Source of the DNA: Candidatus Kuenenbacteria bacterium
Lineage (GTDB): Bacteria > Patescibacteriota > Patescibacteriia > UBA2196 > GWA2-42-15
Length of the DNA stretch: 64,000 bases
Direction: 5' to 3'
Assembly: GCA_012797775.1 (NCBI GenBank)
Contig: JAAZOM010000029.1
Location: forward strand, 3,722 to 67,721
The notes below the pieces were generated by a model. The model did no database searches. It was not told where the DNA came from and saw nothing but the letters and a program-made list of their open reading frames with translations. Both the position numbers and the translations under genes were made by a program. The stretch's first letter is position 1. Every line of letters begins with the position of its first letter. Shown piece after piece: positions 3,744 to 64,000 of this stretch.

Positions 3744-4883
3744 TCAATGGATGGGCCGGATAAATTCCCTTAGTTGATTTATAACTGCTTGTTCCGCCAA
3801 AATCAGTCGGGTTTCTTTTAGTTGAAAACAGGCCCGATTTTTTGTACCAGTGCCCTGCCATGGACTGGCAAGATCAAGGGCGTTGTAGTTGGGTGAGGTA
3901 TAGATCTCTCCATTTATATTGCCAGTATTTGTTTCAAATAAAAGAACGGTAATTTTGATATGCGGGGAACGAGAGAGGAGTTCGTTTACTACGCCCTCTA
4001 GATCTTCAATAGAGCCACCGGATTTTTGAAAGTCAGTTTGGCTGACAAGAGACCAGGCCAGATTATAGTGGGTGTCTTGTTTGAGACGAGCCAAGATGCG
4101 GCCCCAGAGATTGAGGGTGGTGATGCTTTTGTTTTTATTGAGATTATTGATAATGTAGCTTTGATCTGCCCCGAGCTTCATAAGGTAAGAGGCATTGTGC
4201 AAACACTCCGGGGTAATAGCAGGGGTGCGGAAGTTTTCTGTTTTTAAAATAATACCGGAGAGTAGATTGGTAGCAATTTCTGAATTTATGTTTTCTGGTT
4301 GAGTGCTGTTTAAAAGATTGAAAAGCAACTCTGAGCAAGAAGAGGTGTTTAGGCTGATGTGGTTTATCTGCCCAAACCTTTCATTGGCGGGGTGATTGTC
4401 AATATTGATAATAGTAGTTTGGAAAAAAAATTCTGGCTCTTTAGAATAAAGACGCCCAAGAGATTCAAGGTCTTGGCAGCCGGCGGTAATAATTAAGTCA
4501 TATTTATAATTACTGGGTTCTATCGTAATAGATTCTTTTTTAATTTCACCAGACAGGGGGGTAATATAAATTTTTAATTGATTGTTTTTGAGGTTGTAAT
4601 TAAAATCTTTGACGGGATTTTTTTCGACATCTAGAGTTATGATTAGTTTTTTTAGTGGTTCATTGATTGTTTTAATGTTTTCTGAACCAAAGAGAAAAGA
4701 AAATTTATTTTTTAATTTTTCACTCACGACAATATCTGCTGGCTTGTTTATTTTTTGGAGAAACAATTTGAGCGCCAAGATAGAGGCGATGCCGTCGCCC
4801 GTATCGTTTTCGTTAGTAGTGAGTAGAATATGGTGTGAATTTTTGATTAATTCAGAAATTTGTTGGTTGAGGGTGAGAGACAT
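3744..4883 (-). CDS. DHH-family phosphoesterase (NrnA-like oligoribonuclease/pAp phosphatase)
   Basis: N-terminal DTGDGIASILAL motif and a DNH(P) motif, with a DHH/DHHA1-like architecture. Confidence 0.7.
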   Translation of the reverse strand: MSLTLNQQISELIKNSHHILLTTNENDTGDGIASILALKLFLQKINKPADIVVSEKLKNKFSFLFGSENIKTINEPLKKLIITLDVEKNPVKDFNYNLKNNQLKIYITPLSGEIKKESITIEPSNYKYDLIITAGCQDLESLGRLYSKEPEFFFQTTIINIDNHPANERFGQINHISLNTSSCSELLFNLLNSTQPENINSEIATNLLSGIILKTENFRTPAITPECLHNASYLMKLGADQSYIINNLNKNKSITTLNLWGRILARLKQDTHYNLAWSLVSQTDFQKSGGSIEDLEGVVNELLSRSPHIKITVLLFETNTGNINGEIYTSPNYNALDLASPWQGTGTKNRACFQLKETRLILAEQAVINQLREFIRPIH

Positions 4884-5025
4884 TGGAGGAGCAATAAATT
4901 AAAAAATATTAAGTTAATATATAGGAGCACCCGGGATGTGTCAAGGGCGTAAATTGGCAAAAGAGCCTCAAATAAGGAGAAAAGGCTTCTTTTTTATTTG
5001 ACTTTGCTTATTTTTTAACGTAAGA

Positions 5026-7045: not shown

Positions 7046-7381
7046 ATGAACAATTTGATAAAAGAGGGCCTGGGGGAGATACTGCAGAATGAGGTGGAAA
7101 TTGGGGAGGGAATTTTTGTTAGTATAGGTTCGGCAGAGGTGACGCCGGATTTGTCGCTGGCCAAGATATGGATAAACGTTTGGCCTTTAGAAAAATCCAA
7201 TGAGGTATTAGAAATTTTAAAAAAGAACAATTTTAGATTGCGCCAAGAGCTGGCTGGTAAGATGGATTTGCGTCGGGTGCCAAGATTGTTTTTTCAGATA
7301 GATACGGAAGAAATAGAAGATGAGAAGCAGAGAAGGGTGGTGGATGATATTCTGGATAAAATAAGAAAAGAAGAAGGTTGA
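7046..7381 (+). CDS. rbfA: Ribosome-binding factor A
   Basis: Immediately downstream of infB. SD AGGGAG lies 7 nt upstream of ATG 7046. RbfA-like length and composition. Confidence 0.75.
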   Translation: MNNLIKEGLGEILQNEVEIGEGIFVSIGSAEVTPDLSLAKIWINVWPLEKSNEVLEILKKNNFRLRQELAGKMDLRRVPRLFFQIDTEEIEDEKQRRVVDDILDKIRKEEG

Positions 7382-7414
7382 CAGCTCTTTATCTGGCTGG
7401 TAGACTGGGATGAT

Positions 7415-8398
7415 ATGTTTAAAATAAATGAGGATAATAAAATAATTAGCCAGGCCACAATTTTGGCAGAAAAGATAGAGGGGGCTACGAATATTTTGAT
7501 TTTTACCCATAAGGATCCAGACACTGATGCGATTGGCTCCCTTATGGTGATGTCTCGTTTTTTGTCCAAGAGGGGGAAAAATCACCAGATTTTTTTATCA
7601 ATGCCTTTATTAGAAAGGTTTTTTTATTTAAAAGAGAGTGTCAGGATAATCGATGATAAGACAGAAATAAAAAGAGAAAATTTTGATCTGATTATTGGAT
7701 TGGATTGCTCAAATTTGGATTGGAGCGGCATTGAGGAAGTATTGGTCAGAAAGAAAGCAGAGGGTGTTTTTTTTGTAAATATAGATCATCATCCAAATAG
7801 TAATTTTGCTGATTTAAATATAGTAGACAAGGGAAAGGCATCAACTACTTTATTGCTTTATAATTTATTTGTTTTGTGGAAAGTAGAAATTGATGAAAGG
7901 ACGGCAACTCAAATTTTAGCTGGCTTAATAGCTGATACGAATTGTTTCACCAATACGGCTACTGGACCAGAGGCTTATTTCGCGGCGGCAGAGCTGTTGC
8001 GTCTGGGTGCACGCTATACTTATGTGGTGTCACAATTTCAAAGAAATGATCAGAGTAATTGGTTTGCCACTTGGTCAAAGATATTATCAAGATTGACAAA
8101 AAATGATAAAATTAATTTGGCTTATTCGGTGGTGTTACCAGAGGACGTTGAGGGCGGGGGCTCTGGGATATTGGATGGCGCAACCAATTTTTTGAGTAAT
8201 TTGTCGGGCATTAGGATGGCGATGATAATTAAGGAAAGCGCCAGTGGGGAAATAAAGGTAAGCATGAGGTCGCTTGATGGCAAGATAAATGTAGCAAAAT
8301 TGGCTCACGTGTTTGGCGGAGGGGGGCACGAGAAGGCGGCTGGGTTTTCGCTTCGGGGTAGAATAGAAAGGGAAAATAGATATTGGCAGATAGTATAA
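7415..8398 (+). CDS. DHH/DHHA1 phosphoesterase (second NrnA-like paralog)
   Basis: DPDTDAIGS, NIDHHPN (DHH) and GGGGH (DHHA1) motifs. Confidence 0.75.
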   Translation: MFKINEDNKIISQATILAEKIEGATNILIFTHKDPDTDAIGSLMVMSRFLSKRGKNHQIFLSMPLLERFFYLKESVRIIDDKTEIKRENFDLIIGLDCSNLDWSGIEEVLVRKKAEGVFFVNIDHHPNSNFADLNIVDKGKASTTLLLYNLFVLWKVEIDERTATQILAGLIADTNCFTNTATGPEAYFAAAELLRLGARYTYVVSQFQRNDQSNWFATWSKILSRLTKNDKINLAYSVVLPEDVEGGGSGILDGATNFLSNLSGIRMAMIIKESASGEIKVSMRSLDGKINVAKLAHVFGGGGHEKAAGFSLRGRIERENRYWQIV

Positions 8399-8428
8399 AG
8401 TAATTTTAAATTTTAAAATACTCAAATT

Positions 8429-9007
8429 ATGTTTTTGATACCAACAGTGATAGAAAAATCTCAAATGGGGGAAAGGGCTTATGATATCTATTCTCGTCTT
8501 TTGAAAGATAGGATAATTTTTTTGGGTGATATGATCAGCGATCCTTTGGCCAACACAGTCATCGCCCAGATGCTCCTTTTGGATTCGCAGAATAAGGAAA
8601 AAGACATAAAACTTTATATAAATTCCCCCGGGGGGTCGGTGACGGCAGGTTTGGCCATTTATGATACGATGCAATATATCAAATCTCCAGTGCAGACGAT
8701 CTGTATTGGCACAGCCGCCAGCATGGCAGCAGTGCTTTTGGCGGCAGGTGAAAAGGGGAAGAGGCTGTCTTTGCCCAACGCCGAGATAATGTTGCACCAG
8801 GTGATGGGCGGGGCAGAGGGGCAGGCGAGCGACGTAAAGATAAGGGCGGAACACATTTTAAAGATAAAAGACAAATTAAACAAATTAATAGCCAAGCATA
8901 CTGGGCAAGAGCTCAAAAAGATAGAAAGAGATACAGACAGGGATTATTTTATGAGTGCAGAAGAGGCTAAAGACTATGGAATTATAGATAAAATTATAAG
9001 CAACTGA
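8429..9007 (+). CDS. clpP: ATP-dependent Clp protease proteolytic subunit
   Basis: [27 protein letters not shown] (catalytic Ser), MLHQ (His). Confidence 0.95.
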
Positions 9008-44210: not shown

Positions 44211-45257
44211 TTATTCATTAAACACAGAGCCATCAATCGCGTATTTTTTGGCAATTTCCTTGGTGATTAGTTTTTCCTTGATAAGTTGTTGTAGGTATTG
44301 GTCCATACTGATCATGCCATCGTCTGAGGAGGTTTGGATAACGGTTTTTATCTGGGCAATTTTGTTTTCTCTGATGAGGTTGGCGACAGCTGGGGTGTTG
44401 ATCATGATTTCTCTGGCCACGACGCGGCTTTGTCCGTCTGGAGCGGGGAGGAGTTGTTGGGCGATAACACCAATAAGACACATAGACAACTGCATACGTA
44501 TCTGATCTTGCTGGTGAGGTGGGAAGATGTCAATAATTCTGTCTATTGTTTGAGAGGCATTGGGTGTGTGGAGGGTGGTCAAAACAAGGTGCCCGGTTTC
44601 TGCTAGGGTGATAGTAGACGAGATTGTTTCTAGGTCGCGCATTTCGCCAACCATAATGACGTTGGGGTCTTGTCTTAATACATGTTTTAGGGCTTCGGGG
44701 AAAGAAACAAAATCAAAACCATATTGGCGCTGGCGGATAATGCTTTTTTGCGGCTGAAAGACGAATTCAATCGGATCTTCCATGGTTATGATATTGGCAG
44801 CACGGGAGTTATTTATATAGTTGATAATGGCGGCGAGTGAGGTGGACTTACCGCAGCCGGTTGGGCCAGTAAGAATAATCAGGCCTTGATTGAGCTCGGC
44901 TAGCCGATAGACAATTTGGGGCATATTAGTTGATTCCATGGTTGGCGGTTCGGTGTTGATAATGCGGGCGACCAGTCCGGGATTACCTTTTTCAAAATGA
45001 AGATTGACACGAAAACGTTCTCCGGAGCTAAGTTCATGGGAGACATCCATTTCTCGAGTATTGATAAAATCTTCTTTTTGTTTGGGCGTTAGGATGGTAT
45101 ATATTAATTCTTCAACTTTCTTTTTGTTGATAATACCAAAATCATCAAGACGATAAAGAACACCATTGATTCTGATAATTGGTGGTTCATTGACGACGAG
45201 GTGGACGTCAGAGGCGCCTTTGTCGACGCCGATTTTAAAGATTTGATCCAAGAGCAT
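44211..45257 (-). CDS. pilT: Type IV pilus retraction ATPase PilT (twitching motility)
   Basis: Walker A LTGPTGCGKSTSLAAII. Asp box, His box and PilT-family length. Confidence 0.9.
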   Translation of the reverse strand: MLLDQIFKIGVDKGASDVHLVVNEPPIIRINGVLYRLDDFGIINKKKVEELIYTILTPKQKEDFINTREMDVSHELSSGERFRVNLHFEKGNPGLVARIINTEPPTMESTNMPQIVYRLAELNQGLIILTGPTGCGKSTSLAAIINYINNSRAANIITMEDPIEFVFQPQKSIIRQRQYGFDFVSFPEALKHVLRQDPNVIMVGEMRDLETISSTITLAETGHLVLTTLHTPNASQTIDRIIDIFPPHQQDQIRMQLSMCLIGVIAQQLLPAPDGQSRVVAREIMINTPAVANLIRENKIAQIKTVIQTSSDDGMISMDQYLQQLIKEKLITKEIAKKYAIDGSVFNE

Positions 45258-45419
45258 AGTAGTTGGTTAATTTTTATATGGTTATTATACCACAATTGTC
45301 TCACTGGTGGTAATTTTTTGGGTGTAATTTTTTTTGACTTTTGGCGGCGTTTATGGTTAGATTGTTTAAATACTAGAAAACAAAAATTGACATATCAATA
45401 TAAGGTTTGGGAGGACAAG

Positions 45420-47708
45420 ATGAATCAAGAACTATGTTATCAGAAAGTGGTTTTGGTGGCTAAGGGCGAAAATTTTTTTAGCCAGCAATTCCATGAACGT
45501 GAAGTGCCGTTCACTCTAGCTGATGAGAATGGTCTGGAAAGTTTAGATTTCGAGCCTGACTTGATTCTTGCAGTAAATCAGGGATTGAGGCGAGCAGAGG
45601 CATTTAAGGCAAAGTTTGCCTCGGCGACGGTAGTGGTCTGTCAAGGCGGCGCAAAGCACTTCTCTCCACTTTTGACAGTGGTTTGGGGGCAGGGTGTGAA
45701 TGAACACGATTACCACCATTTTGCCAGCTGGGATGCTTTTTTCAGCCTGCTTAGTACACCATTCTTGAAGCAGGAGAAAATATTGCAACAAGTCGATGAC
45801 GGTGTTTTTAACATCGATAGCGACTTGGCAAAAAAGACGGTGCCCCTAATGGATGGCGACGAAACCATGAGCAAGAGAACCCATGGTTTTAACAGCATGT
45901 ATTATACGGGGGAGAGATATTTAGGCTGGTATCTTGATTGGTTGGCAGAAGTAGAAAAAAAAAGGTTTCCGTGCCACTTCACCATGCGAACTGACGGCTC
46001 GGCTGGTAAAAAAAAGGTCTCCATAGTCTCGGTAAGATATTTCCCCGAAGTCCATGTCCACAAAGGGGTGGGAGTATTTAATTTGGAAGATTGGGCCATG
46101 TTTAGGGACAGTGACGGCAGAAAGTATCCGGCTTCGGTGGTGGGGGTAGATACAGGTGATCGCCAGATTATTACTTTTAAATTTGGCGTTCCATTGACTC
46201 GAAAAAAAGTATCAAGACTTACATGCTTTCAAAAAATAGTTAATAAGGCGATGCACAATAGGTATCTAGAGATGGTTCATAATTTGGAGGTGAATGAAGG
46301 AACATTGCCATTGAGAGTCTTGGCTGGCTCGGCGAATAATTCAGCGACCAAGTTTCCGGATGAAGTAAAAATTGATCCGAGAGGCCGCAAAATTTTGTGT
46401 GATCAGTGGCAATGTGAAGCTCTAGCGGCGACGATGAGCAATCAGCCAGTCACCTGCATAGAGGGTATTGGCGGATCTGGCAAGACAACACTCCAAGCTA
46501 TGGCGGCTAAAAATTTTTATCAACAGGGCAAGATTATCTTTTTGGTTTCTCATAGCAATAAAGGCTTGGATGTTTTACTCAATGAGGTTGTGCTTAATTT
46601 GGGTAAAGAACAATATCCATTTATCTTTCGTCTAGGAAATGGTAGACAAATGATAGAGAAAGTCAATCTACCATTTCACCGCCTAAATAGATTTGAAGCT
46701 GGAAAAGCCAGTGAATTGGAGCTGGCTGAAATTCAGAAAGCGATTAATAGTGGGAAGGGAGTTATTATCGCTTGTACTTTAAATGGTCTCATAGTTGATG
46801 AGACTATTAAAAAGATGCTGGAGGCTGGAATTTATCCAGATGTATCTTTTCTGGATGAGGCTAGCCGTGGCCATGTCTATGAAGTAGTTTTTCTTTATAG
46901 CATAACTAGGGAAAAAGTGATAAATACCCTCGACCGGCAGCAGCTTTCGAATATTCCTTTGTCAAGAGAAGCGCGCTCGGAGCTGCAGGAAAGCGGCTCA
47001 AGATTTGAAGAGATTGACGATTTTGACGCCGGGCTTTTAAAAACTTTTCTCAAAAAGGGTTTGTTGACCAGTATTTTTTTGAGGATTTGCCGACGATCAC
47101 TACCCAAAATTATTGAGGTGTTTAATGTTTTTTATGGTGGGCAGGTGATCCCTGGACGCTTTGAAGATGGCAATCAGGGGCAAGTAATTGTCTATGATTT
47201 CTGTAAGGCGCAGGATAGATGGGATGAGCCGAGCGGCAACTCTCTCATCAATAGGCGTGAGGCAAAGCTACTCGCGCAAGTTTTCAAACGCTATTGGAAA
47301 CAATCACCGGATCCTGATTTGGTTGGCATTATCACTTTTTATCAGGGGCAAGTTCGGGAAGTAAGAAAGAAACTCCGAGCGCCATTGATTTTTGCCCTTA
47401 GAGTTGAGCAAGAAGAATTTGATGCCAATATACCGGAGATTGTAAACACGGTGGATGCCTTTCAGGGCTCTCAGCGGCGGAGAATTTTGCTCTCCATGGT
47501 TAACTCGAATATGCTTTTTAACATAGGATTTAATCACCACGAAGAGAGGGTCGTGGTGGCTCTGACAAGAGCCCAGGATTGTTTGGTTATTTTTGTAAAT
47601 TCAGATACATATTTACAAAGTGATCAGGCATCCTCCAATACCAAGGGGGCTATCCAAAAGGCGATCGAAATTGCTAAGATGGATGGCGTGTATTTCTTGG
47701 TGAAATAA
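45420..47708 (+). CDS. Upf1/Dna2-like SF1B helicase with ~390-aa uncharacterised N-terminal domain (horizontally acquired, candidate defence gene)
   Basis: Q-motif LCDQWQCEALA, Walker A GIGGSGKTT, Walker B SFLDEAS, VDAFQGSQ and VALTRAQDCLVI motifs. GC and codon usage are higher than in neighbouring genes. SD GGGAGG precedes ATG 45420. Confidence 0.7.
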   Translation: MNQELCYQKVVLVAKGENFFSQQFHEREVPFTLADENGLESLDFEPDLILAVNQGLRRAEAFKAKFASATVVVCQGGAKHFSPLLTVVWGQGVNEHDYHHFASWDAFFSLLSTPFLKQEKILQQVDDGVFNIDSDLAKKTVPLMDGDETMSKRTHGFNSMYYTGERYLGWYLDWLAEVEKKRFPCHFTMRTDGSAGKKKVSIVSVRYFPEVHVHKGVGVFNLEDWAMFRDSDGRKYPASVVGVDTGDRQIITFKFGVPLTRKKVSRLTCFQKIVNKAMHNRYLEMVHNLEVNEGTLPLRVLAGSANNSATKFPDEVKIDPRGRKILCDQWQCEALAATMSNQPVTCIEGIGGSGKTTLQAMAAKNFYQQGKIIFLVSHSNKGLDVLLNEVVLNLGKEQYPFIFRLGNGRQMIEKVNLPFHRLNRFEAGKASELELAEIQKAINSGKGVIIACTLNGLIVDETIKKMLEAGIYPDVSFLDEASRGHVYEVVFLYSITREKVINTLDRQQLSNIPLSREARSELQESGSRFEEIDDFDAGLLKTFLKKGLLTSIFLRICRRSLPKIIEVFNVFYGGQVIPGRFEDGNQGQVIVYDFCKAQDRWDEPSGNSLINRREAKLLAQVFKRYWKQSPDPDLVGIITFYQGQVREVRKKLRAPLIFALRVEQEEFDANIPEIVNTVDAFQGSQRRRILLSMVNSNMLFNIGFNHHEERVVVALTRAQDCLVIFVNSDTYLQSDQASSNTKGAIQKAIEIAKMDGVYFLVK

Positions 47709-55200: not shown

Positions 55201-56166
55201 GGGGATATCACCCAAGGTTTGCCAAGGGTAGAAGAGATTTTCGAGGCCCGGCCGGTAAAGAAGCCGGCAATTATTGCGCCGGTGTCTGGCACGGTAGAGA
55301 TAGTTAATAATGAGATCACTAGGGAAAAATTGATTAAGATTGCTGGTGTAGAGACAGAAGAAGAGAAGTTTTTTGTGCAAGGTAAAAACCAGGAAAAGGT
55401 AGCAGTTAAAAATAATGCCAAGGTAAAAAAGGGAGATATTTTAGTGGAGGGGCAGAAAAAAATCAGAGCGCCATTTGACGGCAAGGTGGTGATAGAAGAA
55501 GAAAACGAGAGCCGGACAATACTCAAGGTGGTCAAAGAAGAAGAAGTGGTCAAAGAGATGGAGATAGGTCGTGGAGTGACGATACTCGTCAATAATGGAG
55601 ATTGGGTAGAAAAGGGAGATCAGCTGACCAGTGGCTCGATAGATCTTTTTGAGCTTTATAAACTCAAAGGCCAGAGGGCAGTAGAAAATTATGTGATTAA
55701 AGAAATACAATATGTTTATTCTTCACAGGGTCAGCCGCTTAATGATAAACATATTGAAGTTATTGTGAAAAAGATGTTCTCCAAGGTTTTGATTGAAGAC
55801 GCAGGCGATACACTGTTTTCACCCGGAGAAGTTATAGAGAAAGTCGACTTGGATGAGGAAAATGAAAAGATGGATAAGGAGAAAAAACAAAAGGCCATTG
55901 CCAATACAATACTACTTGGTATTACTAAATCATCTTTAGCTACACAGTCATTTTTGTCAGCGGCTTCTTTCCAGGAAACAACAAGAGTCCTTATTGACGC
56001 GGCTATTACCGGAAAGGTTGATCATTTGAGAGGGCTTAAAGAGAATGTGATTATAGGCAAGCTCATACCCTGTGGTAGCGGCTATGATAAAGAGGCATAT
56101 CTGCCGAAAAGAGAAGTGGAAGTAGAGGAAAGCGAGGAGGCGGTAGGGCTGGCAGAGGAAGCTTAG
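52267..56166 (+). CDS. rpoC: DNA-directed RNA polymerase subunit beta'
   Basis: 1299 aa with a zinc ribbon ([14 protein letters not shown]) and the [12 protein letters not shown] catalytic motif. Confidence 0.97.
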
Positions 56167-56180
56167 GAAATATTTAAAAC

Positions 56181-56220
56181 ATCCCTAGTGAGAACTGGGG
56201 ATGTTTTATTTTTGTAATTT
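56181..56220 (+). terminator. Rho-independent terminator after rpoC
   Basis: ACATCCCTAGTGAGAACTGGGGATGT hairpin followed by TTTATTTTTG. Confidence 0.7.
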
Positions 56221-56253
56221 TTTAACAAGGGGCTTTGCTTTAGGTGGGCTAAA

Positions 56254-56706
56254 TTAAGCTTTGTTTTTTAGTAGCTTGATGGCTTCCAAAGAAAGTGCTT
56301 TTGTATTTTTGGGGGCGCCCCCAAGAGTTTTTATTTCCTTGGCAGTAAACCATTTTAGGTTGGTGGTCTCTCCATTTTGCGGATTAATTTTATTAGATTT
56401 AGCTGAAGCATAATAGATAAAGTCTATATGTTGGTGGAATTGATTGATATTTTCCAGCAAGATGTGCATGGGGCGAAATAATTGCTTGGCATCTCCCATT
56501 TTTATTTGTTTATCAGGATTATACATTGTTATTTCTAGGCCAGATTCTTCTTTTATTTCGCGCAAGGCGGCTTCCTGCGGCAATTCATCGCGGTCGATAT
56601 GGCCTCCAACAGGAATCCAAATACCGAGCTTTTTGTGCAAATGTAAAAGCACTTTATTTTTGTGTACTATTATGGTTGTAGCGGTAAAGTGTCTTGTTAT
56701 TTCCAT
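56254..56706 (-). CDS. NUDIX hydrolase
   Basis: Nudix box GGHIDRDELPQEAALREIKEESGL. Confidence 0.8.
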   Translation of the reverse strand: MEITRHFTATTIIVHKNKVLLHLHKKLGIWIPVGGHIDRDELPQEAALREIKEESGLEITMYNPDKQIKMGDAKQLFRPMHILLENINQFHQHIDFIYYASAKSNKINPQNGETTNLKWFTAKEIKTLGGAPKNTKALSLEAIKLLKNKA

Positions 56707-56734
56707 ATGGAAAATAGCGAAGCGAGTGATGTCC

Positions 56735-56955
56735 GCATAACGTACGCGTGTATGTGATGTCCGCCGTTAGGCGGATATGGGCGAAGGTTCACCGATAGGG
56801 GAACCGTAGCCACATACACGCTGTTATATGATGTACGCTTTTTCTTTTAACCCAATAGGGTCGTTTTTCTGTTATAGATCAAATTGATTTTTCATTTGGC
56901 GGGGGCGCAAGAGGGAAAATCAAAAAGGGTGAATTGCGCCCCCCGCCAACACAAT
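56735..56955 (-). ncRNA. Structured noncoding leader element, copy 1 (upstream of the NUDIX gene)
   Basis: An 11-bp outer stem GCGTGTATGTG/CACATACACGC encloses two hairpins. Conserved single-stranded TGATGT, ATATGGG.G.AGG and GTTATATGATGT blocks. A second hairpin has the conserved loop GAGGGAAAAT.AAAGGGTGAA. It is homologous to 59372-59660 with compensatory stem changes. Confidence 0.45.
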
Positions 56956-56963
56956 CGTATTAA

Positions 56964-58457
56964 TTATAGTGCTCCACCTAGTCGTATATACCCGTCGTAA
57001 GGGGCCGGTGCTTTTTCTCCTGTGATACCTTGGTCAAGGTCGAAACCAATTGATCTATCGGCAAGTCCCTCATCTTTTCCTATTGCGGAAAATAATACTG
57101 AATTTGCGCTGGTGTCTGGCACTTTTTCTTCCCGACGAAAAAAAGATAATTCTGCGTCTGAATCGCACTCACGATCTAAATTTATGGATGACGCTCTAAT
57201 ATCCGTTTCGTCAAGTAGGTCAGCAACATTTTGTCTGCCTTCCATGCTGTCGCGCGCAACATGTGCGTTGCCTAAAATCGCTAACATTTTTCCGCCACCT
57301 TCAACAACTTCGCGAATTTTTTGCATCATGAAGATATCTCGTTGTTTTTCCAGTTCCGCCTCTTTTGCCTTTAAAGTCTCCATTGTCACGCCATTGCGTC
57401 CAAGTGATTCCATACCCCGATCAAGTTCCTGGTTTGTGCCATAAGTCGCATTTGCGTCTATACAAGATGGACGCAAGCCAGACTGGCGTATTGCTTCTAA
57501 CAAACGGTAATTTTTGTCCAAATGGTTTTTGAATAAAAAGTTTTTTTTAAACATTTTTTGTTGTTCAAAAGCGAACATTTCATCAGTTACGCCCTCTCGT
57601 TTGATAGCACGGTATTGTCCTCCTTCATCTCGTTGAAAATCAAATAATGGTTGATTTTTAGGGTCAACACCAGCAGTAAGCTGTTCTCGAAATAATTGGT
57701 GATATTCATCTACTCGCTCGTAGTCGGTCGGGTCGTCTGCGTCGTCAAATTTGCCGGTAGTCATATAATGATCAACTGCCTCTTGATAATACGCTGGTAT
57801 TTCTAAACCTATATGCGTTGTGCCAGCGGCCTTGGCTTGTTCAAGAAATCTTGCTGTTGCTCTTTTTTCAACAGTTTCGTGGGTGTGTATTTCGCCAAGT
57901 AAAACAACATCGTTGCCACGTATTTTATCCGATAAGTATTCGCCCGCATTTTTTGCTCGCTCTCTCACTTGACCCATATCTACTTGTGATTCTAATCTGC
58001 TACGTTCTTTTGAACCTATCCCTAGCTGTTTTTCGCCAACGTAAAATCCAGTAAAAAATTTATTCTTCTCTTTTGGTTTATTTCTCCCTCTCTCAAATAA
58101 ACCTCCTGTTAAAAAATTAGCGACGGACAAAAATCGCTCCTTCATTCGACCAAGAGATAAGTCCAGCCGGCGTAATTTATCCGCTGTTTCTTTTTGAATT
58201 TCGGCAAATTGCGCATTTAGTTCGGGCGGAAATTCGGCACTTGTTTGTTCCTTGCTTTGCAAAGCTGAGAGTGTATCATGTCCGGCTTTCAGCCCTGCGT
58301 CTGTTTCTGTATCAATTTCTCTCTGGATTTTAGAAATATCCGGCAGGCGTTCACGCTCCGGAGTTTCTGGCGGTTTTTCCGCGGTCGCTTCCCGCTGGGC
58401 TAATTTTTCAATTTCCGGATTGGTCATACTGATTGATTTGTTTTTTAACATGCTCAA
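56964..58457 (-). CDS. Hypothetical protein with C-terminal Tiki/TraB/ChaN-superfamily-like domain (two GxxH motifs)
   Basis: VVLLGEIHTHE and AILGNAHVA resemble the paired GxxH motifs of ChaN/TraB/Tiki. N-terminal coiled-coil region. Higher GC than surrounding genes. Confidence 0.4.
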   Translation of the reverse strand: MSMLKNKSISMTNPEIEKLAQREATAEKPPETPERERLPDISKIQREIDTETDAGLKAGHDTLSALQSKEQTSAEFPPELNAQFAEIQKETADKLRRLDLSLGRMKERFLSVANFLTGGLFERGRNKPKEKNKFFTGFYVGEKQLGIGSKERSRLESQVDMGQVRERAKNAGEYLSDKIRGNDVVLLGEIHTHETVEKRATARFLEQAKAAGTTHIGLEIPAYYQEAVDHYMTTGKFDDADDPTDYERVDEYHQLFREQLTAGVDPKNQPLFDFQRDEGGQYRAIKREGVTDEMFAFEQQKMFKKNFLFKNHLDKNYRLLEAIRQSGLRPSCIDANATYGTNQELDRGMESLGRNGVTMETLKAKEAELEKQRDIFMMQKIREVVEGGGKMLAILGNAHVARDSMEGRQNVADLLDETDIRASSINLDRECDSDAELSFFRREEKVPDTSANSVLFSAIGKDEGLADRSIGFDLDQGITGEKAPAPYDGYIRLGGAL

Positions 58458-58584
58458 TTTTCAGCGCGTCAATTTTTGCTTGTGCTTCTTTTACGATTTT
58501 ATTTTTTTCATGCGCAATATCTTGCACACTAGCCTGGTAGTGAGAGAGCAATTTCATGAGCAATTTTGTGATGTTTGTATTCAT
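58408..58584 (-). CDS. Possible 58-aa coupled small ORF
   Basis: Its ATG overlaps the stop of the upstream gene (ATGA), and its 3' end overlaps the annotated start of the downstream gene. Confidence 0.3.
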   Translation of the reverse strand: MNTNITKLLMKLLSHYQASVQDIAHEKNKIVKEAQAKIDALKIEHVKKQINQYDQSGN

Positions 58585-59183
58585 ACGGCTTTTTGTTTTG
58601 AACGTTCTTGTGAGTAGATAAATACTAGTTTTGAATTGCCTTTTTCAGCTTTGATACCAATATCACCAATTTGATTTACATCATATCCAAAATTTTGAAG
58701 ATGTGGCTGTAATTTTTCCGCCTCACCTTTGGGAATGAGCAAGTGCAAACCCTCGCGCGGAATTGATGGATCATTAATTGTTTCAGTGTCAACAAACAAA
58801 ATGATATTTTGTTTTTGTTCCAATAATTCTACCAGCTTACCGACATCTTTTGCCTCAAGACCGCTGGCCTCAATCGTTCGTTTAGCCAAATCGCCGACTT
58901 CTGTGATATCTTTTCCTTTCATTGCCGATAGTGTATTTTCTTCGGCTTGTTCAATCGCGGCTCTTTCAGTGTCTAGCACCGAACTCCTGTCAAAAGAACG
59001 GATGCCGACCTGTTCGCCGTATGCTGTGTTGGCGACAAGTTTTTCTTGGCCAGGTAATCCCACGTAGTATGTTTCAATCGCGTGCGGTTTTTGAGGTTTG
59101 TCTTTTGTTTCTGGAGCGGGTTGTTTAAGTCTGGATTCTTTTGCGATTTGTTCTTGATTGATTTCTCGTGATCTGTTAGGCAT
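58581..59183 (-). CDS. Hypothetical protein (200 aa), part of the foreign cassette
   Basis: ORF with elevated GC and no recognisable motifs. Confidence 0.5.
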   Translation of the reverse strand: MPNRSREINQEQIAKESRLKQPAPETKDKPQKPHAIETYYVGLPGQEKLVANTAYGEQVGIRSFDRSSVLDTERAAIEQAEENTLSAMKGKDITEVGDLAKRTIEASGLEAKDVGKLVELLEQKQNIILFVDTETINDPSIPREGLHLLIPKGEAEKLQPHLQNFGYDVNQIGDIGIKAEKGNSKLVFIYSQERSKQKAV

Positions 59184-59371
59184 ATGTTTTAAAAATATAT
59201 ATTAAATTGTATTCGCTTGCGAGGGATGGAGCAAGCGAATACACCTTGTTTTTCCCTCATAAAATAATTCGTTTCCGCAGCGATAGCGGAGGAAACACCA
59301 TATTAAATGAAAAATCAATTTGATCGTTATAGAAAAACGGGCGACTGCAGGAGCCAAAAGAAAAAGCGTAT

Positions 59372-59660
59372 TTCATACAACGTTTCGGCATATCTGATGT
59401 TTGCCGTAGCGTAGCGGAGGCAAATATGGGTGGAGGCTTTTGTATAAAAGCCGTAACCAGATATGCCGTGTTATGTGATGTGCATGTTTTACTTTAATCC
59501 CGATAGCAATCGGGCTTGCTCTAAAAAAGAATTTTAATTTTGTTTTTTTGTTTTGGATTTTGGGCAGAGGGGTTAGGGGTGAATGCCCAAAATCCAAAAC
59601 TCCTTATTTTGTTTGAGGGAGGGGCAAGAGGGGAAATAAAGGGGTGAATTGCCCCAACCG
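59372..59660 (-). ncRNA. Structured noncoding leader element, copy 2 (upstream of the cassette)
   Basis: Same architecture as 56735-56955, with outer stem CGGCATATCTG/CAGATATGCCG (compensatory). Includes an extra inverted repeat TTTTGGATTTTGGGCA..TGCCCAAAATCCAAAA. Confidence 0.45.
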
Positions 59661-59668
59661 AAAACGCT

Positions 59669-60715
59669 CTATTTCTTTTTTGTATAATATTTATCAAATT
59701 TTTTCACAATATTCGGGCTATAAAAATCTTTTCTGGAACTTTTTGTATTATCAGGATCAAGATAGCGTGTTCTGCTCAAATTTTTGTCTTTCATTAATTC
59801 TTTACGAAGTTTGTGAAATTTACCGTTCGTCTTAAAATCACCAAATCGTTTATTTAATTCTTTTACTAAACCGCGATAATCAAGCGGATATTTTTTCTTT
59901 AAAATTTCTTCCTCTTCAAGCCTCATGGCTGGCGCATTTGGATCATCTGTTATTTGAACGCCTAAACCGTTTTTACTTTTTCCTGCAACTATTGAAACTG
60001 GTTTGACATCTCCAATAAGTCTTAATACTGGCTTTCCTTTTTCTTGAAAATTACCCTGATTTATAAATTTTAATTTTGGAATCAGTTTTTTATCTATGAC
60101 AAGCGTTCCACCTTTCCCAGTTATTTCTCCGCCGATAGTATCCATAATTGCCGCGTTTGTTGGACCAATTTTTGATATTTTTTCAAAATGCTCCAGCCAG
60201 CCTTTTCTTTCCTCTTCTTTAACAAAATCAAACATCGCTATTATTTCCGGATATTTTATCCTTTCACTTCTTGCATTGTAGCGATAATAAATATCTGCCT
60301 CTTTTAATTCGCCATCATTTTTTAGACACACAATCGGTTTTGTCTTTGCTTGTTGCGTATACAATAATCCAATTTTTTTGGTATTTACGGTTATTTCAAA
60401 TTTTTCAAAAATTATTTCTGGGGCAAAGACACTGTTTAGGTACGCGGTAATTTTAGCTTCGTCCACCTCTTCAAAATTATTGCTTTGAAGTCCAACAAGA
60501 TCACGCGGTTTATCTTTTATCCCGAAAACAATATATCCGCCCTTATTGTTTGCAAAAGCAACCATGCTTTTTGCGTATTTGTCTTTTGAATTCCAGTTGA
60601 AAGATTCTTTAAATTCAAGCCACCCACTTTCACGCGAGATTATTCTATCTGCGATTGTTTCGTGGAACAAAAAAATCTTGTTGTATTCATCGTTATTTTT
60701 AAAATCATTGCTCAT
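59669..60715 (-). CDS. AlbA_2 (Schlafen-like) domain protein
   Basis: ESGWLEFKESF and VAFANNKGGYIVFGIKDK match the AlbA_2/divergent-AAA DNA-binding domain signature. Its start is 2 nt after the res stop. Confidence 0.6.
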   Translation of the reverse strand: MSNDFKNNDEYNKIFLFHETIADRIISRESGWLEFKESFNWNSKDKYAKSMVAFANNKGGYIVFGIKDKPRDLVGLQSNNFEEVDEAKITAYLNSVFAPEIIFEKFEITVNTKKIGLLYTQQAKTKPIVCLKNDGELKEADIYYRYNARSERIKYPEIIAMFDFVKEEERKGWLEHFEKISKIGPTNAAIMDTIGGEITGKGGTLVIDKKLIPKLKFINQGNFQEKGKPVLRLIGDVKPVSIVAGKSKNGLGVQITDDPNAPAMRLEEEEILKKKYPLDYRGLVKELNKRFGDFKTNGKFHKLRKELMKDKNLSRTRYLDPDNTKSSRKDFYSPNIVKKFDKYYTKKK

Positions 60716-60717
60716 AT

Positions 60718-63006
60718 TTATTTTAGATCAAAAACTTCCCACCCTTTCATTGATGAATCAAAAGAATACTTTGCGTTGCGGTTAATTTTCCAGCCATTCG
60801 GGCCGTCTTGGACGGCTATACCGCCGTCAAAATCTTTTCTGCCTTTCAGCCACGCTTGCAAGGCCTCCGCTTTATATTTTGTATCGTTACTCTCGGCGGT
60901 AATACCAGCTTTTGTATCAATAATTATAACGCCCTTTTTAGTCTTAATGATCCAGTCAGGATAAAATAGTTTTTCTTTGTTCTCATCGGGGTTATAGTAG
61001 GAAATTGAAAAATGCTCACTTCCATTGTCGCCGTTTTTATGCCACCAAATTACGCTTTTATTTTGAGGCGATTCGAGAAACTTGATAAAGTTTTTCTCAT
61101 TATCGTTTCCGCCGAAAAGCCCTGCTTGAGTTTTTTCAAACCAAAAAGGTTCCATTGCTGATTTTTTGACCGCCAATTCCTCGTATTGATCGGTAAAAAA
61201 TAATGCTTCGCGCGGTATTTCAATATGCTCCACGCGCTTCGCGCGTGCCGCTTTTTTATTTACTTCTTGCTCACGGACAGGGCGATATGCTAAAAGTGCA
61301 TCACCGATTACTGGCGCGAGTGCGCCAGCTTCACCAACTAAATCGTTCACAATAACTTTGTAAACGTCCGCGCGTGAAAGTTTTAACTTCTCCATTAGAT
61401 AAATATTGAGTGCGGTTTTGAGCTTGCCCCATGAACGTTCTGGCGCAAATTTACGGTTTTCGTCGGTTTGTTTGGCGACAATTTTGAAACACAATAGATT
61501 ATATAATCGTTCAAGATCATGGCGAGACATTTCTTCATCATAACTCCCGCCTTCTTCAAAAAGCTCCTTTGTAAAATTGTCATAATCGTCAATTTCCACA
61601 CCGACAATTAAGCCGTTTGTAACCTTGGGCTTTAGGTTTAGCTTTTTTGTATCCAGTTTTTTATCCGCTACTTGCTTGAAAGTATTTTGGAATGAATCAC
61701 CCAAGTCGTTATAGTCCGCACGTGTCATAAAGACGGATTCCAGTTTGATCGGTTCAACATTTTTCTTGCGATAACTGCCGTTGATTGCGGGACGGTTTTC
61801 GGTTTTGGATTTTGCGTATTCCGCCAAAACTTCGTTGCGCTTATAGTTAGTGTAAAGATAACCAAGATTAAGTTCGGGGTTGGCAAAGTGGGTGCCAAAT
61901 GGCATACGTAAAATACGCCCGACGGTCTGTATTGCAAAAGTCGGATTCTTTATCTCGCGGAACATCACCAACACGCTCGCGCGCGGACAATCCCAGCCAG
62001 TCGCGACGGCTTGTTTGAACAAGAGAAACGAAACAGGCGAGTTGTGTTTTTCTAAATCTTCCAAATTTTCTTTTTCCTTGGAGAGCCAAACGGCAATTTC
62101 ATCGTTTTTTACACCTTTGCGTTTTAGATACTCCAATACAATCGTCTGTTTAGTTGTGTCACTCGTTTCTTTGCTTGCTTGATCGTCATTTGGAAGTTGA
62201 ATTAAAACAAGTGGATTAACTTCAACGCCGATCTTTTTGTACAAATCAATCAATTCTTTCCGTTTGGAATACGCTAATTCCAAAAGCATTTCGTCTTGGT
62301 CAAGTTTTTTGACGGCTTTCTGTTTTAAATCTTCTTCTGTCTGAAAAACAATTTTTTCTTTGATTAACCCTGCTTCAACGACATCACTTCGCTTTGCTTC
62401 AACATATCCCGCAGTTTCGGCGCGAGTAGGAATATATTTCGGCGTAGCCGACACGCGAAGCGTGATTTTTGGTTTGATAAGTCCATCCACCACTTCCATA
62501 GCAAGATCGGTGTCGCTTCCGATATGTTCCTCATCAATAATTACAACAATTTTGCGTCCTGCGTCGTGGGTTTCGTTGATAAAATTATCAAAAGTCAACC
62601 CTTGCTCATTTTCACGGCGTAATTTACGACTATCCTTGCTTTTGCCTTTTATTTTCTGCCAGTTTATAAAAAAGACATCATTTTGATGAAGTTTCTCGCG
62701 CGAAAGGTCGTTTAAGTCAATTAAATCAAGCTCACTTGCTCCGCCATAATAATCAAAAAGTTTCTTTTTGCTCTGTTCGTAAGAATCCTCGCTGAAAGAA
62801 AACCACACAAAAGCTACATCATTGCCCTGAAATCGGGGATCGCTGACAATATCGCGCAAAAATTGTGCCAACATTATCGTTTTACCGCTTCCAGTCGGCG
62901 ATTTAAAAACAAGCGGTATATTTTGATTTGGCAATTTCCACAAATTCAAAAACTGATCTTTGAGTTGTGATATTGCTGTTTCTTGAAATGGTTTTAAAGC
63001 AAACAT
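60718..63006 (-). CDS. res: Type III restriction enzyme Res subunit (helicase-like)
   Basis: Walker A SPTGSGKT and DEAH-like IIDEEH, with SF2 helicase motifs. 762 aa. Confidence 0.85.
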   Translation of the reverse strand: MFALKPFQETAISQLKDQFLNLWKLPNQNIPLVFKSPTGSGKTIMLAQFLRDIVSDPRFQGNDVAFVWFSFSEDSYEQSKKKLFDYYGGASELDLIDLNDLSREKLHQNDVFFINWQKIKGKSKDSRKLRRENEQGLTFDNFINETHDAGRKIVVIIDEEHIGSDTDLAMEVVDGLIKPKITLRVSATPKYIPTRAETAGYVEAKRSDVVEAGLIKEKIVFQTEEDLKQKAVKKLDQDEMLLELAYSKRKELIDLYKKIGVEVNPLVLIQLPNDDQASKETSDTTKQTIVLEYLKRKGVKNDEIAVWLSKEKENLEDLEKHNSPVSFLLFKQAVATGWDCPRASVLVMFREIKNPTFAIQTVGRILRMPFGTHFANPELNLGYLYTNYKRNEVLAEYAKSKTENRPAINGSYRKKNVEPIKLESVFMTRADYNDLGDSFQNTFKQVADKKLDTKKLNLKPKVTNGLIVGVEIDDYDNFTKELFEEGGSYDEEMSRHDLERLYNLLCFKIVAKQTDENRKFAPERSWGKLKTALNIYLMEKLKLSRADVYKVIVNDLVGEAGALAPVIGDALLAYRPVREQEVNKKAARAKRVEHIEIPREALFFTDQYEELAVKKSAMEPFWFEKTQAGLFGGNDNEKNFIKFLESPQNKSVIWWHKNGDNGSEHFSISYYNPDENKEKLFYPDWIIKTKKGVIIIDTKAGITAESNDTKYKAEALQAWLKGRKDFDGGIAVQDGPNGWKINRNAKYSFDSSMKGWEVFDLK

Positions 63007-63008
63007 AA

Positions 63009-64000
63009 TTATATCCTGTTAATTTCTTTGTAAACTTCAATAATCGGCTCTGGAATATCTTCGACTCTGATATTCGCGGACGAATACTCGCCTTTGTATT
63101 CGTTTTTACCCCAGCTGAAAATATATAAAGCCGTCGGTAAATTTTTCTTTTCCAATTTGGCTATTAACTCGCCGAGCTTTGTCTTGTCTTCCTTAAAATA
63201 AATTGCGGTTAATTTTCCATTACCTTCAAAAATTTGCCACCAATCATTTTTCTCAATTTCATTGAGCGTATCTTCTCGCACCCCGATCATTTCGCCTGCT
63301 TCGTAGGTTATGCGGATTTTCGCTTCGTCCGGCACTTTGTGGATTTGCTCAATGTCCACGAGGTCGGTTTGGTAATAAAAAAGATTACTTGGAATACCAG
63401 CGACTCTCTCATTTTTTTTGTTCTTGTAGCCGTTAATAACTGCCTTAATACGCGGATAGCAAACTGATTCAGCAATTCCGCCGTTTCCACCGTTGTTGTT
63501 TTCGTTGTTGGTGCAAAGAATAAATTTACGATTGCCACCGTCAATCTTGTTCATTTCTAAAACAGCGTGTCCAGTTGTCCCAGATCCAGCGAAAAAATCC
63601 AAAACATTTGCATTTGGACGCGATCCTACAACGGCAAAGAGACAATCGTAAACAGTATAGAGTGACTTAGGAAAGTCAAAATCACACTTTGGTAATATCT
63701 CACGCAAAAGTTTTGTTCCGTATTCACTTGCGTCGTATTTTTTGTCAGTCCAAACAGTTTTATAAGTGCCGTAATCTTTCGCAATCATTATTTGAACAAT
63801 GCCACCGCGTGATTCTTTAATTTGGAGGATGTCTTTTATTTCTTCAACGCTTTGTCGTGCGTATCGCCATTTTCGCTCGACACCTTTTTCGTCAATCGGC
63901 CAAATATAAATACTACCGTCTTTTTGTTTTTCGTTTGCCGATTTTGGATGAAATTCGTTTGACGCAACATCACCAAAACCAATAATCTTTCCACCTTTTA
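63009..64000 (-). CDS. mod: Type III N6-adenine DNA methyltransferase Mod subunit (5' end outside window)
   Basis: DFFAGSGTTGHA (FxGxG motif I) in the C-terminal part. The frame stays open to the window edge. Confidence 0.8.
   Translation of the reverse strand, partial: KGGKIIGFGDVASNEFHPKSANEKQKDGSIYIWPIDEKGVERKWRYARQSVEEIKDILQIKESRGGIVQIMIAKDYGTYKTVWTDKKYDASEYGTKLLREILPKCDFDFPKSLYTVYDCLFAVVGSRPNANVLDFFAGSGTTGHAVLEMNKIDGGNRKFILCTNNENNNGGNGGIAESVCYPRIKAVINGYKNKKNERVAGIPSNLFYYQTDLVDIEQIHKVPDEAKIRITYEAGEMIGVREDTLNEIEKNDWWQIFEGNGKLTAIYFKEDKTKLGELIAKLEKKNLPTALYIFSWGKNEYKGEYSSANIRVEDIPEPIIEVYKEINRI

Follow-up and report, generated by a model that had tools for sequence, protein, structure and literature searches.

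A Schlafen gene with a predicted catalytic motif in a variable gene slot behind a Type III-like restriction-modification operon of a probable candidate phyla radiation bacterium

Introduction

Prokaryotic Schlafen proteins (pSlfn) are increasingly associated with phage defence, and here we describe one whose gene directly follows the mod and res genes of a Type III-like restriction-modification (R-M) operon, at one end of a stretch of 64,000 nucleotides (nt) from a Candidatus Kuenenbacteria contig (JAAZOM010000029.1; the whole stretch analysed is called the window hereafter). Perez Taboada et al. reported Ex4(E/D)xK as the catalytic motif that marks human SLFN11 as well as 5,930 prokaryotic Schlafens. 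Two of the latter protect Escherichia coli against phage, one through phage-triggered tRNA cleavage; the motif was required for both tRNA cleavage and phage defence (PMC13056530). Another example, CbCash, is a CRISPR (clustered regularly interspaced short palindromic repeats)-associated Schlafen tRNase with an E-D-K centre (PMC13462974). Published surveys of prokaryotic Schlafens place more than half (>50 %) of the defence-linked members near R-M systems or other nucleases, and the R-M-associated Schlafens include a cluster with unknown C-terminal domains (PMC13462974). In addition, Schlafens fused to HisKinase and winged helix-turn-helix (wHTH) domains have been described as back-up RNases linked to bacteriophage exclusion (BREX) systems (PMC12839542), and Payne et al. 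(2024) collected phage defence candidates (PDC) through 'guilt-by-embedding', that is, as genes nested in Hma, BREX, DISARM (defence island system associated with restriction-modification) and Type I R-M systems (10.1101/2024.01.29.577857).

The protein encoded in the window resembles the published prokaryotic Schlafens in its N-terminal SLFN_AlbA_2 domain with an Ex4ExK motif, its fused non-catalytic C-terminal region and its R-M neighbourhood. It differs from them in its C-terminal domain, which is not of the HisKinase, Ig-like, DUF262 or Csx15 kind, and in being a member of a 348-amino-acid (aa) Patescibacteria family known from sequence. PDC-S19 and PDC-S50 owe their definition to an embedded position within BREX, DISARM or Type I R-M loci; the host is of Type III here, and the gene comes behind the last gene of the system instead of lying between its genes. 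The C-terminal 107 aa match PDC-S19 and the N-terminal domain matches PDC-S50, neither at full length, so that the protein is a chimera of both architectures. As in the Type I-linked PrrC and RloC, a predicted tRNA cutter would be placed in a restriction operon as a back-up layer. Unlike these, the protein is a Schlafen without ABC-ATPase or HEPN domain and its partner R-M type is not fixed, which makes physical masking in the manner of PrrC unlikely.

R-M-linked Schlafens (2024-2026) and embedded defence genes have already been published, and the case in the window differs from them in host, geometry and domain combination, not in kind. Specific to it are the Type III host in an uncultured lineage of the candidate phyla radiation (CPR), the append after the last gene that is exact to the open reading frame (ORF), and the combination of a Schlafen with a DUF3644-type C-terminal domain. 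To our knowledge, CPR bacteria are largely devoid of CRISPR. With some reservation, we think it probable that this Schlafen is an autonomous second-layer RNase effector, carried as a generic add-on in a slot behind R-M systems and not specific to Type III.

A variable slot behind res

The features of the locus are compiled in Table 1. Only the 3' part of mod lies in the window, and the complete gene (572 aa) was found at 3853-5571 of an ENA metagenome contig, L001, which equals the window at 100 % DNA identity over 4613 nt and carries HD_4, DUF2726 and KsgA genes 5' of mod. The preliminary description of this DNA had reported that the res stop codon is followed two nucleotides later by the ATG of a 348-aa AlbA_2 ORF, and had read the arrangement as one of co-expression. 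The spacing was confirmed from the sequence (TAA at 60718-60720, spacer at 60716-60717, ATG at 60713-60715) and the labels by Pfam and PADLOC; the mod/res junction is built alike, with TAA at 63009-63011, two bases and ATG at 63004-63006. The promoter scan found no promoter-like site near the Schlafen ATG in the 3' part of res, and a Shine-Dalgarno-like sequence is absent 5-12 nt 5' of this ATG, where the sequence reads ...GATCTAAAATAAAT-ATG. Several minus-strand promoter-like hexamer pairs occur within res and the Schlafen gene (best 61525-61498, 10/12), and a single, weak terminator-like site (3 G-C pairs) lies on the same strand far within res. Since the site count (13) is at the level of shuffled sequence (14 ± 3.8), the scan neither proves nor rules out an internal promoter. 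The junction lends no support to separate expression of the Schlafen gene; given its tightness and the lack of a nearby promoter-like site or Shine-Dalgarno sequence, co-expression with mod-res via translational coupling is a reasonable inference, in agreement with the placement for co-expression first read from the junction spacing.

A scan of metagenomes with the Res sequence of the window returned 80 loci (L089-L168; Res 67-97 % identical at the aa level), among which the Schlafen gene is present in one only, L124. The position after res, a sharply bounded and hypervariable third-gene slot that we consider the most interesting by-product of this analysis, is occupied in 55 of the 80 loci by a same-strand ORF of at least 100 aa starting next to the res stop, and these occupants fall into at least 31 groups unrelated by BLAST. 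Among them, Pfam and PADLOC recognise Shedu SduA (E-values as low as 1e-157), ATPases of the AAA_15/AAA_21 type that resemble AriA, GajA, Old and PtuA, SMODS and DUF2779 proteins, DruA, a KAP NTPase, an AAA_13 protein (L165), a second, short Schlafen type, DUF5680, a RecJ-like protein, a large serine recombinase (L144 only) and PDC-M36A, and about half of the occupants lack a Pfam match. In 42 of the 55 occupied loci, the start codon falls between -4 and +5 nt relative to the stop of res, so that the tight spacing is no chance feature of the window locus, and its recurrence across unrelated cassettes implies selection for co-expression.

The edges of the slot are equally sharp. In 78 of the 80 loci, the point at which DNA similarity to the window is lost lies no more than about 70 nt from the res stop, and in 28 it falls at 60712-60721. 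The closest relative, L089 (Res 97 % identical at the aa level), shares 94.4 % DNA identity with the window up to exactly the res stop; in place of the Schlafen gene (window 59681-60717) it carries, at 7290-8716, a gene for a SMODS nucleotidyltransferase (294 aa) and an overlapping ORF of 202 aa, and from 12 nt ahead of the Schlafen stop the two sequences are similar again, with 95.7 % identity as far as 59357. The slot is empty in L097 and L099, with the post-slot flank directly after res, and in other sub-lineages loci with differing third genes have a common flank from the third gene's stop codon onward. Moreover, Res of L124 is 85 % identical to that of the window and its Schlafen only 72 %, whereas the Schlafen of the Type I-linked locus L004 is 93 % identical, values that are incongruent with co-inheritance. 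The composition of the Schlafen gene looks foreign (GC 32.8 % and, at third codon positions (GC3), 26.9 %, against 40.4 % and 39.4 % in res), the gene being markedly more AT-rich than its operon partners and the window. Boundaries, swap, empty slots, incongruent identities and composition together show a one-gene cassette slot, with the Schlafen gene as a recent acquisition.

Table 1. Coordinates of features at the locus (minus-strand features read from high to low positions), followed by loci that carry orthologues of the Schlafen gene.
Feature or locus	Position	Strand	Identity to window Schlafen	Remark
mod, 3' part (C-terminal 329 codons)	63009..64000	-		frame open to window edge; gene continues beyond
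res, 762 aa	60718..63006	-		ORF and translation
res/Schlafen junction TAA-AT-ATG	60713..60720	-		left boundary of variable cassette
Schlafen/AlbA_2 gene, 348 aa	59669..60715	-		cassette filling the slot after res
Ex4ExK motif, codons 29-36 (E-SGWL-E-F-K)	60608..60631	-		alignment of 27 orthologues
C-terminal domain, aa 241-347	59675..59995	-		H-H-H-beta-beta-H topology, tentatively winged-helix-like
Right flank of cassette	59357..59680	-		95.7 % shared with L089, which has another cassette
Right-flank hairpins, related loops	59620-59658; 59551-59599 (17-bp perfect stem)	-		
Inverted repeat, ~76 nt, imperfect	right arm 59470-59553; left arm L001 3697-3772			left arm 80 nt 5' of mod, beyond window
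L003, L010			86 %, 73 %	Type III-like mod/res upstream; L003 pair distant
L004 (Jacksonbacteria bin)			93 % (aa), closest orthologue	overlaps end of Type I hsdM-S fusion that follows hsdR
L017, L028			56 %, 55 %	Type IIG Eco57I-like enzymes
P0017 loci L083-L086			79 %	past 1321-aa T5orf172-ResIII-Eco57I protein (Type IIG) and two small ORFs
P0020 (L088)			80 %	Type II pair: C5 methylase and NgoFVII-like nuclease
L023			52 %	after BREX PglZ and BrxL
L021, L027, L015			51-58 %	after PLD-SNF2 helicase and Eco57I-like methylase
P0023 (L087)			79 %	no R-M gene nearby

These data bear directly on the proposal of the preliminary description that the Schlafen is a dedicated third component of the Type III enzyme, that is, a subunit or partner co-evolved with Mod and Res. 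Such a role could draw on the 2-nt coupling, which equals that of the mod/res junction, and on the recurrence of the same three-gene order, which L124 and L010 share and which L003 shows with a distant pair of Type III genes. However, just 1 of the 80 Res-family loci has the Schlafen and at least 31 other families stand at the same position, the closest orthologues (93 % for the nearest, behind a Type I system) follow Type I, II and IIG systems, and the incongruent identities, the foreign-looking GC3 and the empty slots argue in the same direction. The survey has already largely refuted this proposal, and we give it next to no chance. Of two signs of independence named at the outset, lack of linkage to mod-res in relatives was indeed found, whereas a promoter belonging to the Schlafen gene was not, the scan remaining at the shuffled level.

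The gene might also be a pure hitch-hiker, selfish or neutral in nature, that came to rest in a permissive 'genomic sink' and is without functional tie to R-M and perhaps to defence. This would agree with the foreign-looking composition, with the promiscuous contexts, some of which adjoin serine recombinases and ParB-methylases of mobile elements, and with the 30 % of pSlfn genes that are not near defence genes (PMC13056530). It is nonetheless unlikely in view of the strong conservation of the protein (57-93 %, in many lineages) with intact catalytic residues, the recurrent start placement from -4 to +5 nt across unrelated cassettes, and the enrichment of the slot in proven defence genes, for example Shedu.

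There is, furthermore, a slim but real chance that the slot is a dedicated, ORF-exact cassette-exchange site, in other words an integron-like defence platform without recognisable integrase. Such a site might be bounded on the left by the stop/ATG junction and on the right by a conserved GC-rich hairpin element, and it might load promoterless back-up effectors (Schlafen, Shedu, OLD-like ATPases, SMODS and many others) whose expression, and perhaps activation, would be tied to R-M. The post-slot element in question consists of AGGGAGC, a GC-rich hairpin of one of two stem types, TGTGCGCGCAC and then GGGNGGGTGGGGCAAGCACA. It was found at L093 7727-7816, L097 6249-6338, L101 6071-6165 and in other loci, independently of the slot content and directly after res if the slot is empty, and leads into a GC-rich stretch of several hundred nucleotides with no convincing ORF; the window keeps only its last part, as a weak remnant at 59640-59660. 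Single copies fold into GC-rich hairpins, and RNAalifold on a MAFFT alignment of the element gave no consensus structure. Integron gene cassettes each end in an attC-type recombination site and have an integrase as neighbour. The hairpin element described here follows the slot and not each cassette type, being present in empty loci too, no tyrosine integrase was seen, and the large serine recombinase is confined to the slot of L144.

Two minor points concern the slot and its surroundings. In five nearly identical loci (L131, L132, L135-L137), an N-terminal ORF of 133 aa stands after res and is followed by a separate ORF of 314 aa, and the same AAA_15-type ATPase is a single ORF of 505 aa in L109; the gene may be split or have become a pseudogene. 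The conserved sequence GTGCGCGCAC... behind a hairpin was considered as the possible 5' end of a group II intron of the terminator-targeting kind, an idea that was dropped: Rfam reported no intron, and no reverse-transcriptase ORF lies downstream.

Linkage of the Schlafen to different restriction systems

For a view from the side of the Schlafen, the neighbours of its relatives were annotated in 80 genome loci, and exact look-ups of three close homologues added further loci; because clustering of neighbours by BLAST alone was too insensitive, iterated profile searches and Pfam scans were added. With Mod and Res of the window as phmmer queries, Type III neighbours were detected in 2 of these 80 loci (L003 and L010). 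Among the 32 closest loci, about 20 have a DNA methylase, an R-M helicase or a BREX gene at most four genes away, in an operon-like arrangement in about 13, and the systems concerned are diverse (Table 1). The more distant relatives (about 50-70 % identity) adjoin BREX genes or, in some cases, have no R-M neighbour that could be recognised. In the Type I loci L046, L065, L069, L070, L072 and L080, a longer relative of 430-490 aa is enclosed by hsdM and hsdS.

The link of the Schlafen to R-M is, as judged from these neighbourhoods, modular, accompanying Type I, II, IIG and III systems. The same Schlafen behind four R-M types, and the same R-M system with at least 31 third genes, amount to a natural experiment for modular linkage. 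It speaks against mechanisms tied to a particular partner and in favour of back-up effectors that act autonomously and use the promoter of the R-M system.

This is of particular relevance for a guard mechanism like that of PrrC and RloC, in which the RNase would be masked by contact with the R-M complex and freed when a phage anti-restriction protein disables this complex. Tight co-expression would suit such a stoichiometric partner, R-M-linked HEPN RNases have the same C-terminal domain (see below), and the same slot holds an AAA_13 protein in L165, a member of PF13166, which we take to include RloC/PrrC-type proteins. A precedent is PrrC, embedded in EcoprrI (cited in 10.1101/2024.01.29.577857). 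On the other hand, orthologues of 79-93 % identity accompany structurally unrelated R-M types or none, so that a single conserved protein-protein interface is unlikely. Additionally, two characterised defensive bacterial Schlafens, RorSlfn5 and Cash, are triggered without an R-M partner: RorSlfn5 detects a phage protein via its fused Ig-like domain (PMC13056530), and Cash is switched on by cyclic tetra-adenylate (cA4) from a type III CRISPR system. Altogether, close orthologues behind Type I, II, IIG and III systems probably point to autonomous sensing and render the guard of a specific complex less likely, and we regard the latter as distinctly unlikely.

Two of the loci deserve a separate remark. 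In L004, the region upstream of hsdR (2524-2594) is 91.5 % identical to the 64 nt 5' of mod plus the start codon (L001 3789-3859), and L004 and the window lineage likewise have in common the Schlafen gene (with 91 % identity of the DNA) and one hairpin downstream. Conservation therefore extends to the leader, the third gene and the tail, with different R-M genes in between. In L027 (1-8193), as in L015, the Schlafen gene lies behind a five-gene same-strand cluster that includes a PLD-SNF2 helicase, an Eco57I-like methylase, a B12-binding radical SAM protein and a protein of the uracil-DNA-glycosylase family, and that may be an uncharacterised DNA-modification-based system.

The Schlafen protein and its C-terminal domain

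The 348-aa protein matches SLFN_AlbA_2 (PF04326) over residues 29-153 with an E-value of 4e-23 (82.5 bits against a cut-off of 25.3), which places it, as first suggested, in a defence-linked family. Its 719 homologues are mostly 340-360 aa long, stem chiefly from Patescibacteria/CPR metagenome bins and are 57-93 % identical. The residues R28, E29, E34, F35, K36 and E37 do not vary across 27 orthologues (57-85 % identity). Searched with a profile, the PDB returned SLFN13, SLFN5, SLFN14, SLFN11, SLFN12 and CbCash. Similarly, Foldseek matched the N-terminal part of the AlphaFold model to SLFN13, SLFN5, SLFN14 and SLFN11, to the bacterial AlbA_2 structures 2kyy and 3lmm and to the tRNase domain of SAMD9 (E 2e-6 to 4e-4, probability 1.0), with low TM-scores because the N-terminal third alone was aligned. 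The model is confident for residues 1-128 and 265-348, not for 129-264. The PADLOC profile PDC-S50 matches the N-terminal domain only (profile positions 11-146 of 387, E 4.8e-8). Pfam and NCBIfam contributed no domain beyond PF04326, and hence no HisKinase-like ATPase domain as in the COG2865-type Schlafen-HisKinase-wHTH proteins, which represent the most frequent pSlfn architecture and are also linked to BREX; likewise, neither an ABC-ATPase N-domain nor a HEPN anticodon-nuclease C-domain was detected with Pfam, PADLOC or NCBIfam. By sequence and predicted fold, the third protein is a prokaryotic Schlafen with an intact catalytic motif and a predicted RNase activity.

For the C-terminal 200 aa, a HEPN or nuclease domain had been envisaged; neither was recognised, and an accessory domain of about 100 aa with a winged-helix-like appearance takes its place. 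In the model, the final ~85 residues form a helix-helix-helix-strand-strand-helix arrangement (predicted local distance difference test (pLDDT) 83-95), and the assignment as a winged helix is tentative. PDC-S19 matches these C-terminal 107 aa only (8e-35, profile positions 223-328 of 330). A search with residues 240-348 against 1.84 billion representative proteins gave 512 clusters, and among 69 longer carriers (224-463 aa) chosen from the listed matches, the N-terminal partner is DUF3644 in 52, SLFN_AlbA_2 in 14 and RhuM in 1. The HEPN family EC042_2821, with which DUF3644 overlaps, was characterised by Anantharaman et al. (2013, PMC3710099) as 'fused to wHTH ... occurs in R-M system operons'. 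The window protein thus has in common with EC042_2821/DUF3644 the C-terminal domain of ~100 aa, the R-M operon setting and the layout of an RNase effector plus accessory domain, and differs in that the effector domain is a Schlafen instead of HEPN. Since the domain is common to Schlafen and DUF3644 proteins, one accessory domain serves two RNase effector families in R-M contexts and is, on the evidence of these sequence matches, a module shuffled between them.

With a winged-helix-like C-terminus, and with homologues annotated in databases as, for example, 'predicted HTH transcriptional regulator' or 'AlbA family DNA-binding domain-containing protein', the protein could instead be conceived as a non-catalytic DNA-binding regulator of the COG2865 type that controls the expression or establishment of the R-M system in the manner of a C protein. 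The invariance of the Ex4ExK motif speaks against this, as do the position of the gene after res and not before it, the nucleases, ATPases and cyclases in the same slot, which cannot be R-M regulators, and the pairing of the C-terminal domain with HEPN RNases as well; a regulatory role is therefore very unlikely.

Within the family, P0039 and P0064 are 74-78 % identical except for their last ~90 residues, which are entirely different (alignment columns ~265-371). This is a swap of the C-terminal domain inside the family, consistent with a domain that sets specificity.

A possible mode of action

An autonomous second-layer effector, the reading preferred here, could work as follows. The Schlafen would be translated from the mod-res transcript by termination-reinitiation coupling, and its product would be an RNase in a latent state. 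As with the Schlafens characterised from bacteria and humans, tRNA is its most likely substrate, which it would cleave through the invariant site E29-x4-E34-x-K36. This activity might be gated by the middle region, which is conserved, and by the winged-helix-like domain at the C-terminus, as sensor or regulator. The protein would thereby provide a second-layer defence of the abortive-infection type, co-regulated and co-transferred with the R-M system and firing once a phage has passed restriction. The cue would be phage- or damage-derived and probably sensed by the Schlafen on its own, not via a specific R-M subunit. The authors of the Cash study speculated that R-M-linked Schlafens may sense structures made by DNA cleavage (PMC13462974), a cue that would fit any R-M type.

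Several points weigh against this reading. RNase activity, substrate and trigger of the Schlafen are all inferred, and the third acidic residue used by mammalian Schlafens (D248 in SLFN13) is without a clearly invariant counterpart, the candidate D68 being D or N in the alignment, as judged by eye. The middle ~130 residues are highly conserved yet modelled with a pLDDT below 50, and the Foldseek matches of the C-terminal half (PadR, LmrR, MarR and forkhead winged helices) include none that is significant (E >= 2). About one third of the closer orthologue loci are without an R-M gene within four genes. Finally, co-transcription is deduced from spacing alone, and elsewhere the Schlafen gene lies 95-157 nt past its neighbour, presumably with its own promoter. 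The occupants of the slot form a ready list of candidate defence genes that could be mined through 'guilt by appending'.

The mod-res operon

The assignment of mod-res to the Type III kind, already made in the preliminary description, is borne out by Pfam, PADLOC and the PDB matches to Type III Mods. Mod contains the Pfam domain N6_N4_Mtase, is hit by nine MTase_III models of PADLOC (best 1.3e-22) and matches the Mod chains of Mbo45V (1.7e-47) and EcoP15I (1.7e-21) in the PDB. With motif IV, DPPY ('IYIDPPYNTG'), before motif I, FxGxG ('FFAGSGTTG'), the order of motifs in the 572-aa protein is that of a beta-class N6-adenine methyltransferase. Res matches ResIII in Pfam (1.4e-15), with Helicase_C at its threshold, and REase_III in PADLOC (1.1e-18), the latter covering residues 17-388 only. 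The motifs of a superfamily 2 (SF2) helicase (GSGKT, DEEH, SAT, QTVGRILR) can be read from its translation, and its C-terminus contains a PD...D-x-K-like motif (YPDW...IIDTK) that is kept in L089, L097 and L124; profile and PDB searches gave no match to the C-terminal half. No PDB sequence was matched by Res with phmmer, and neither Res nor the Schlafen protein found a match in NCBIfam. A PADLOC check, as had been recommended, accordingly recognised res as REase_III and mod as MTase_III, whereas the Schlafen matched only parts of the profiles PDC-S19 and PDC-S50.

Among the 80 related loci, mod lies 5' of res wherever the contig reaches upstream. Judged by these matches and gene order, mod-res is a Type III-like operon of a probable Patescibacteria/CPR bacterium. 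It corresponds to the classical Type III systems EcoP15I and EcoP1I in the order of mod and res, in its beta-class N6-adenine Mod related to that of EcoP15I, and in the SF2 helicase part at the N-terminus of Res; the candidate PD-(D/E)xK-like motif at the C-terminus may be a further parallel. In contrast to these systems, a variable third gene is coupled to res, and Res is shorter, with 762 aa, and without detectable sequence match to solved Res chains. Res of EcoP15I comprises about 970 aa.

Flanks, hairpins and repeats

The arms of the inverted repeat (Table 1) are 92-94 % complementary and bracket the entire mod-res-cassette module, as do their counterparts in L089 (3124-3195 and 8836-8915). 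Similarity between the window and L089 stops ~115-125 nt outside each arm, as if the module behaved like a transferable unit. The hairpin and inverted-repeat sequences of the window were found only in the window and L089, neither in the other Res loci nor elsewhere in the 64 kb, and are lineage-specific.

The spacer of 485 nt after the Schlafen gene (59184-59668, minus strand) has a minimum free energy of -142 kcal/mol, compared with -94 ± 5 for shuffled sequences (z = -9.0). It also contains a direct repeat of 40 nt, with a spacing of 65 nt, and matches neither an Rfam family nor a tRNA or tmRNA. Rfam reported nothing in 56000-64000 or 3' of the slot in L097, and a chance-level match only in L096. 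Outside the window, 5' of mod, nested inverted repeats with four arm pairs (82-96 % complementary) at L001 2920-3567 form a palindrome-like structure of ~650 bp around and inside the HD_4 ORF, which could be an assembly artefact or a real feature.

Neighbouring genes

That this end of the window is a defence island, as had been suggested from the adjacent cassette and a helicase gene, is weakly supported. The adjacent genes (497 aa and 200 aa) are parted from the operon by the hairpin-rich 485-nt spacer and are not shared by L089; PADLOC has no match for either, the 497-aa gene gave a sub-threshold ChaN/Tiki match only, and the 200-aa gene no match. The helicase of superfamily 1 (SF1; 45201-47708, plus strand, 835 aa, AAA_11/AAA_12) matches only the helicase core of Mokosh MkoA/MkoC and is separated from the R-M operon by rpoB and rpoC. 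Its gene overlaps the start of a divergent gene for a T2SSE/PilT-like ATPase (44211-45257, minus strand), which also encodes 348 aa and is likewise parted from the operon by rpoB and rpoC.

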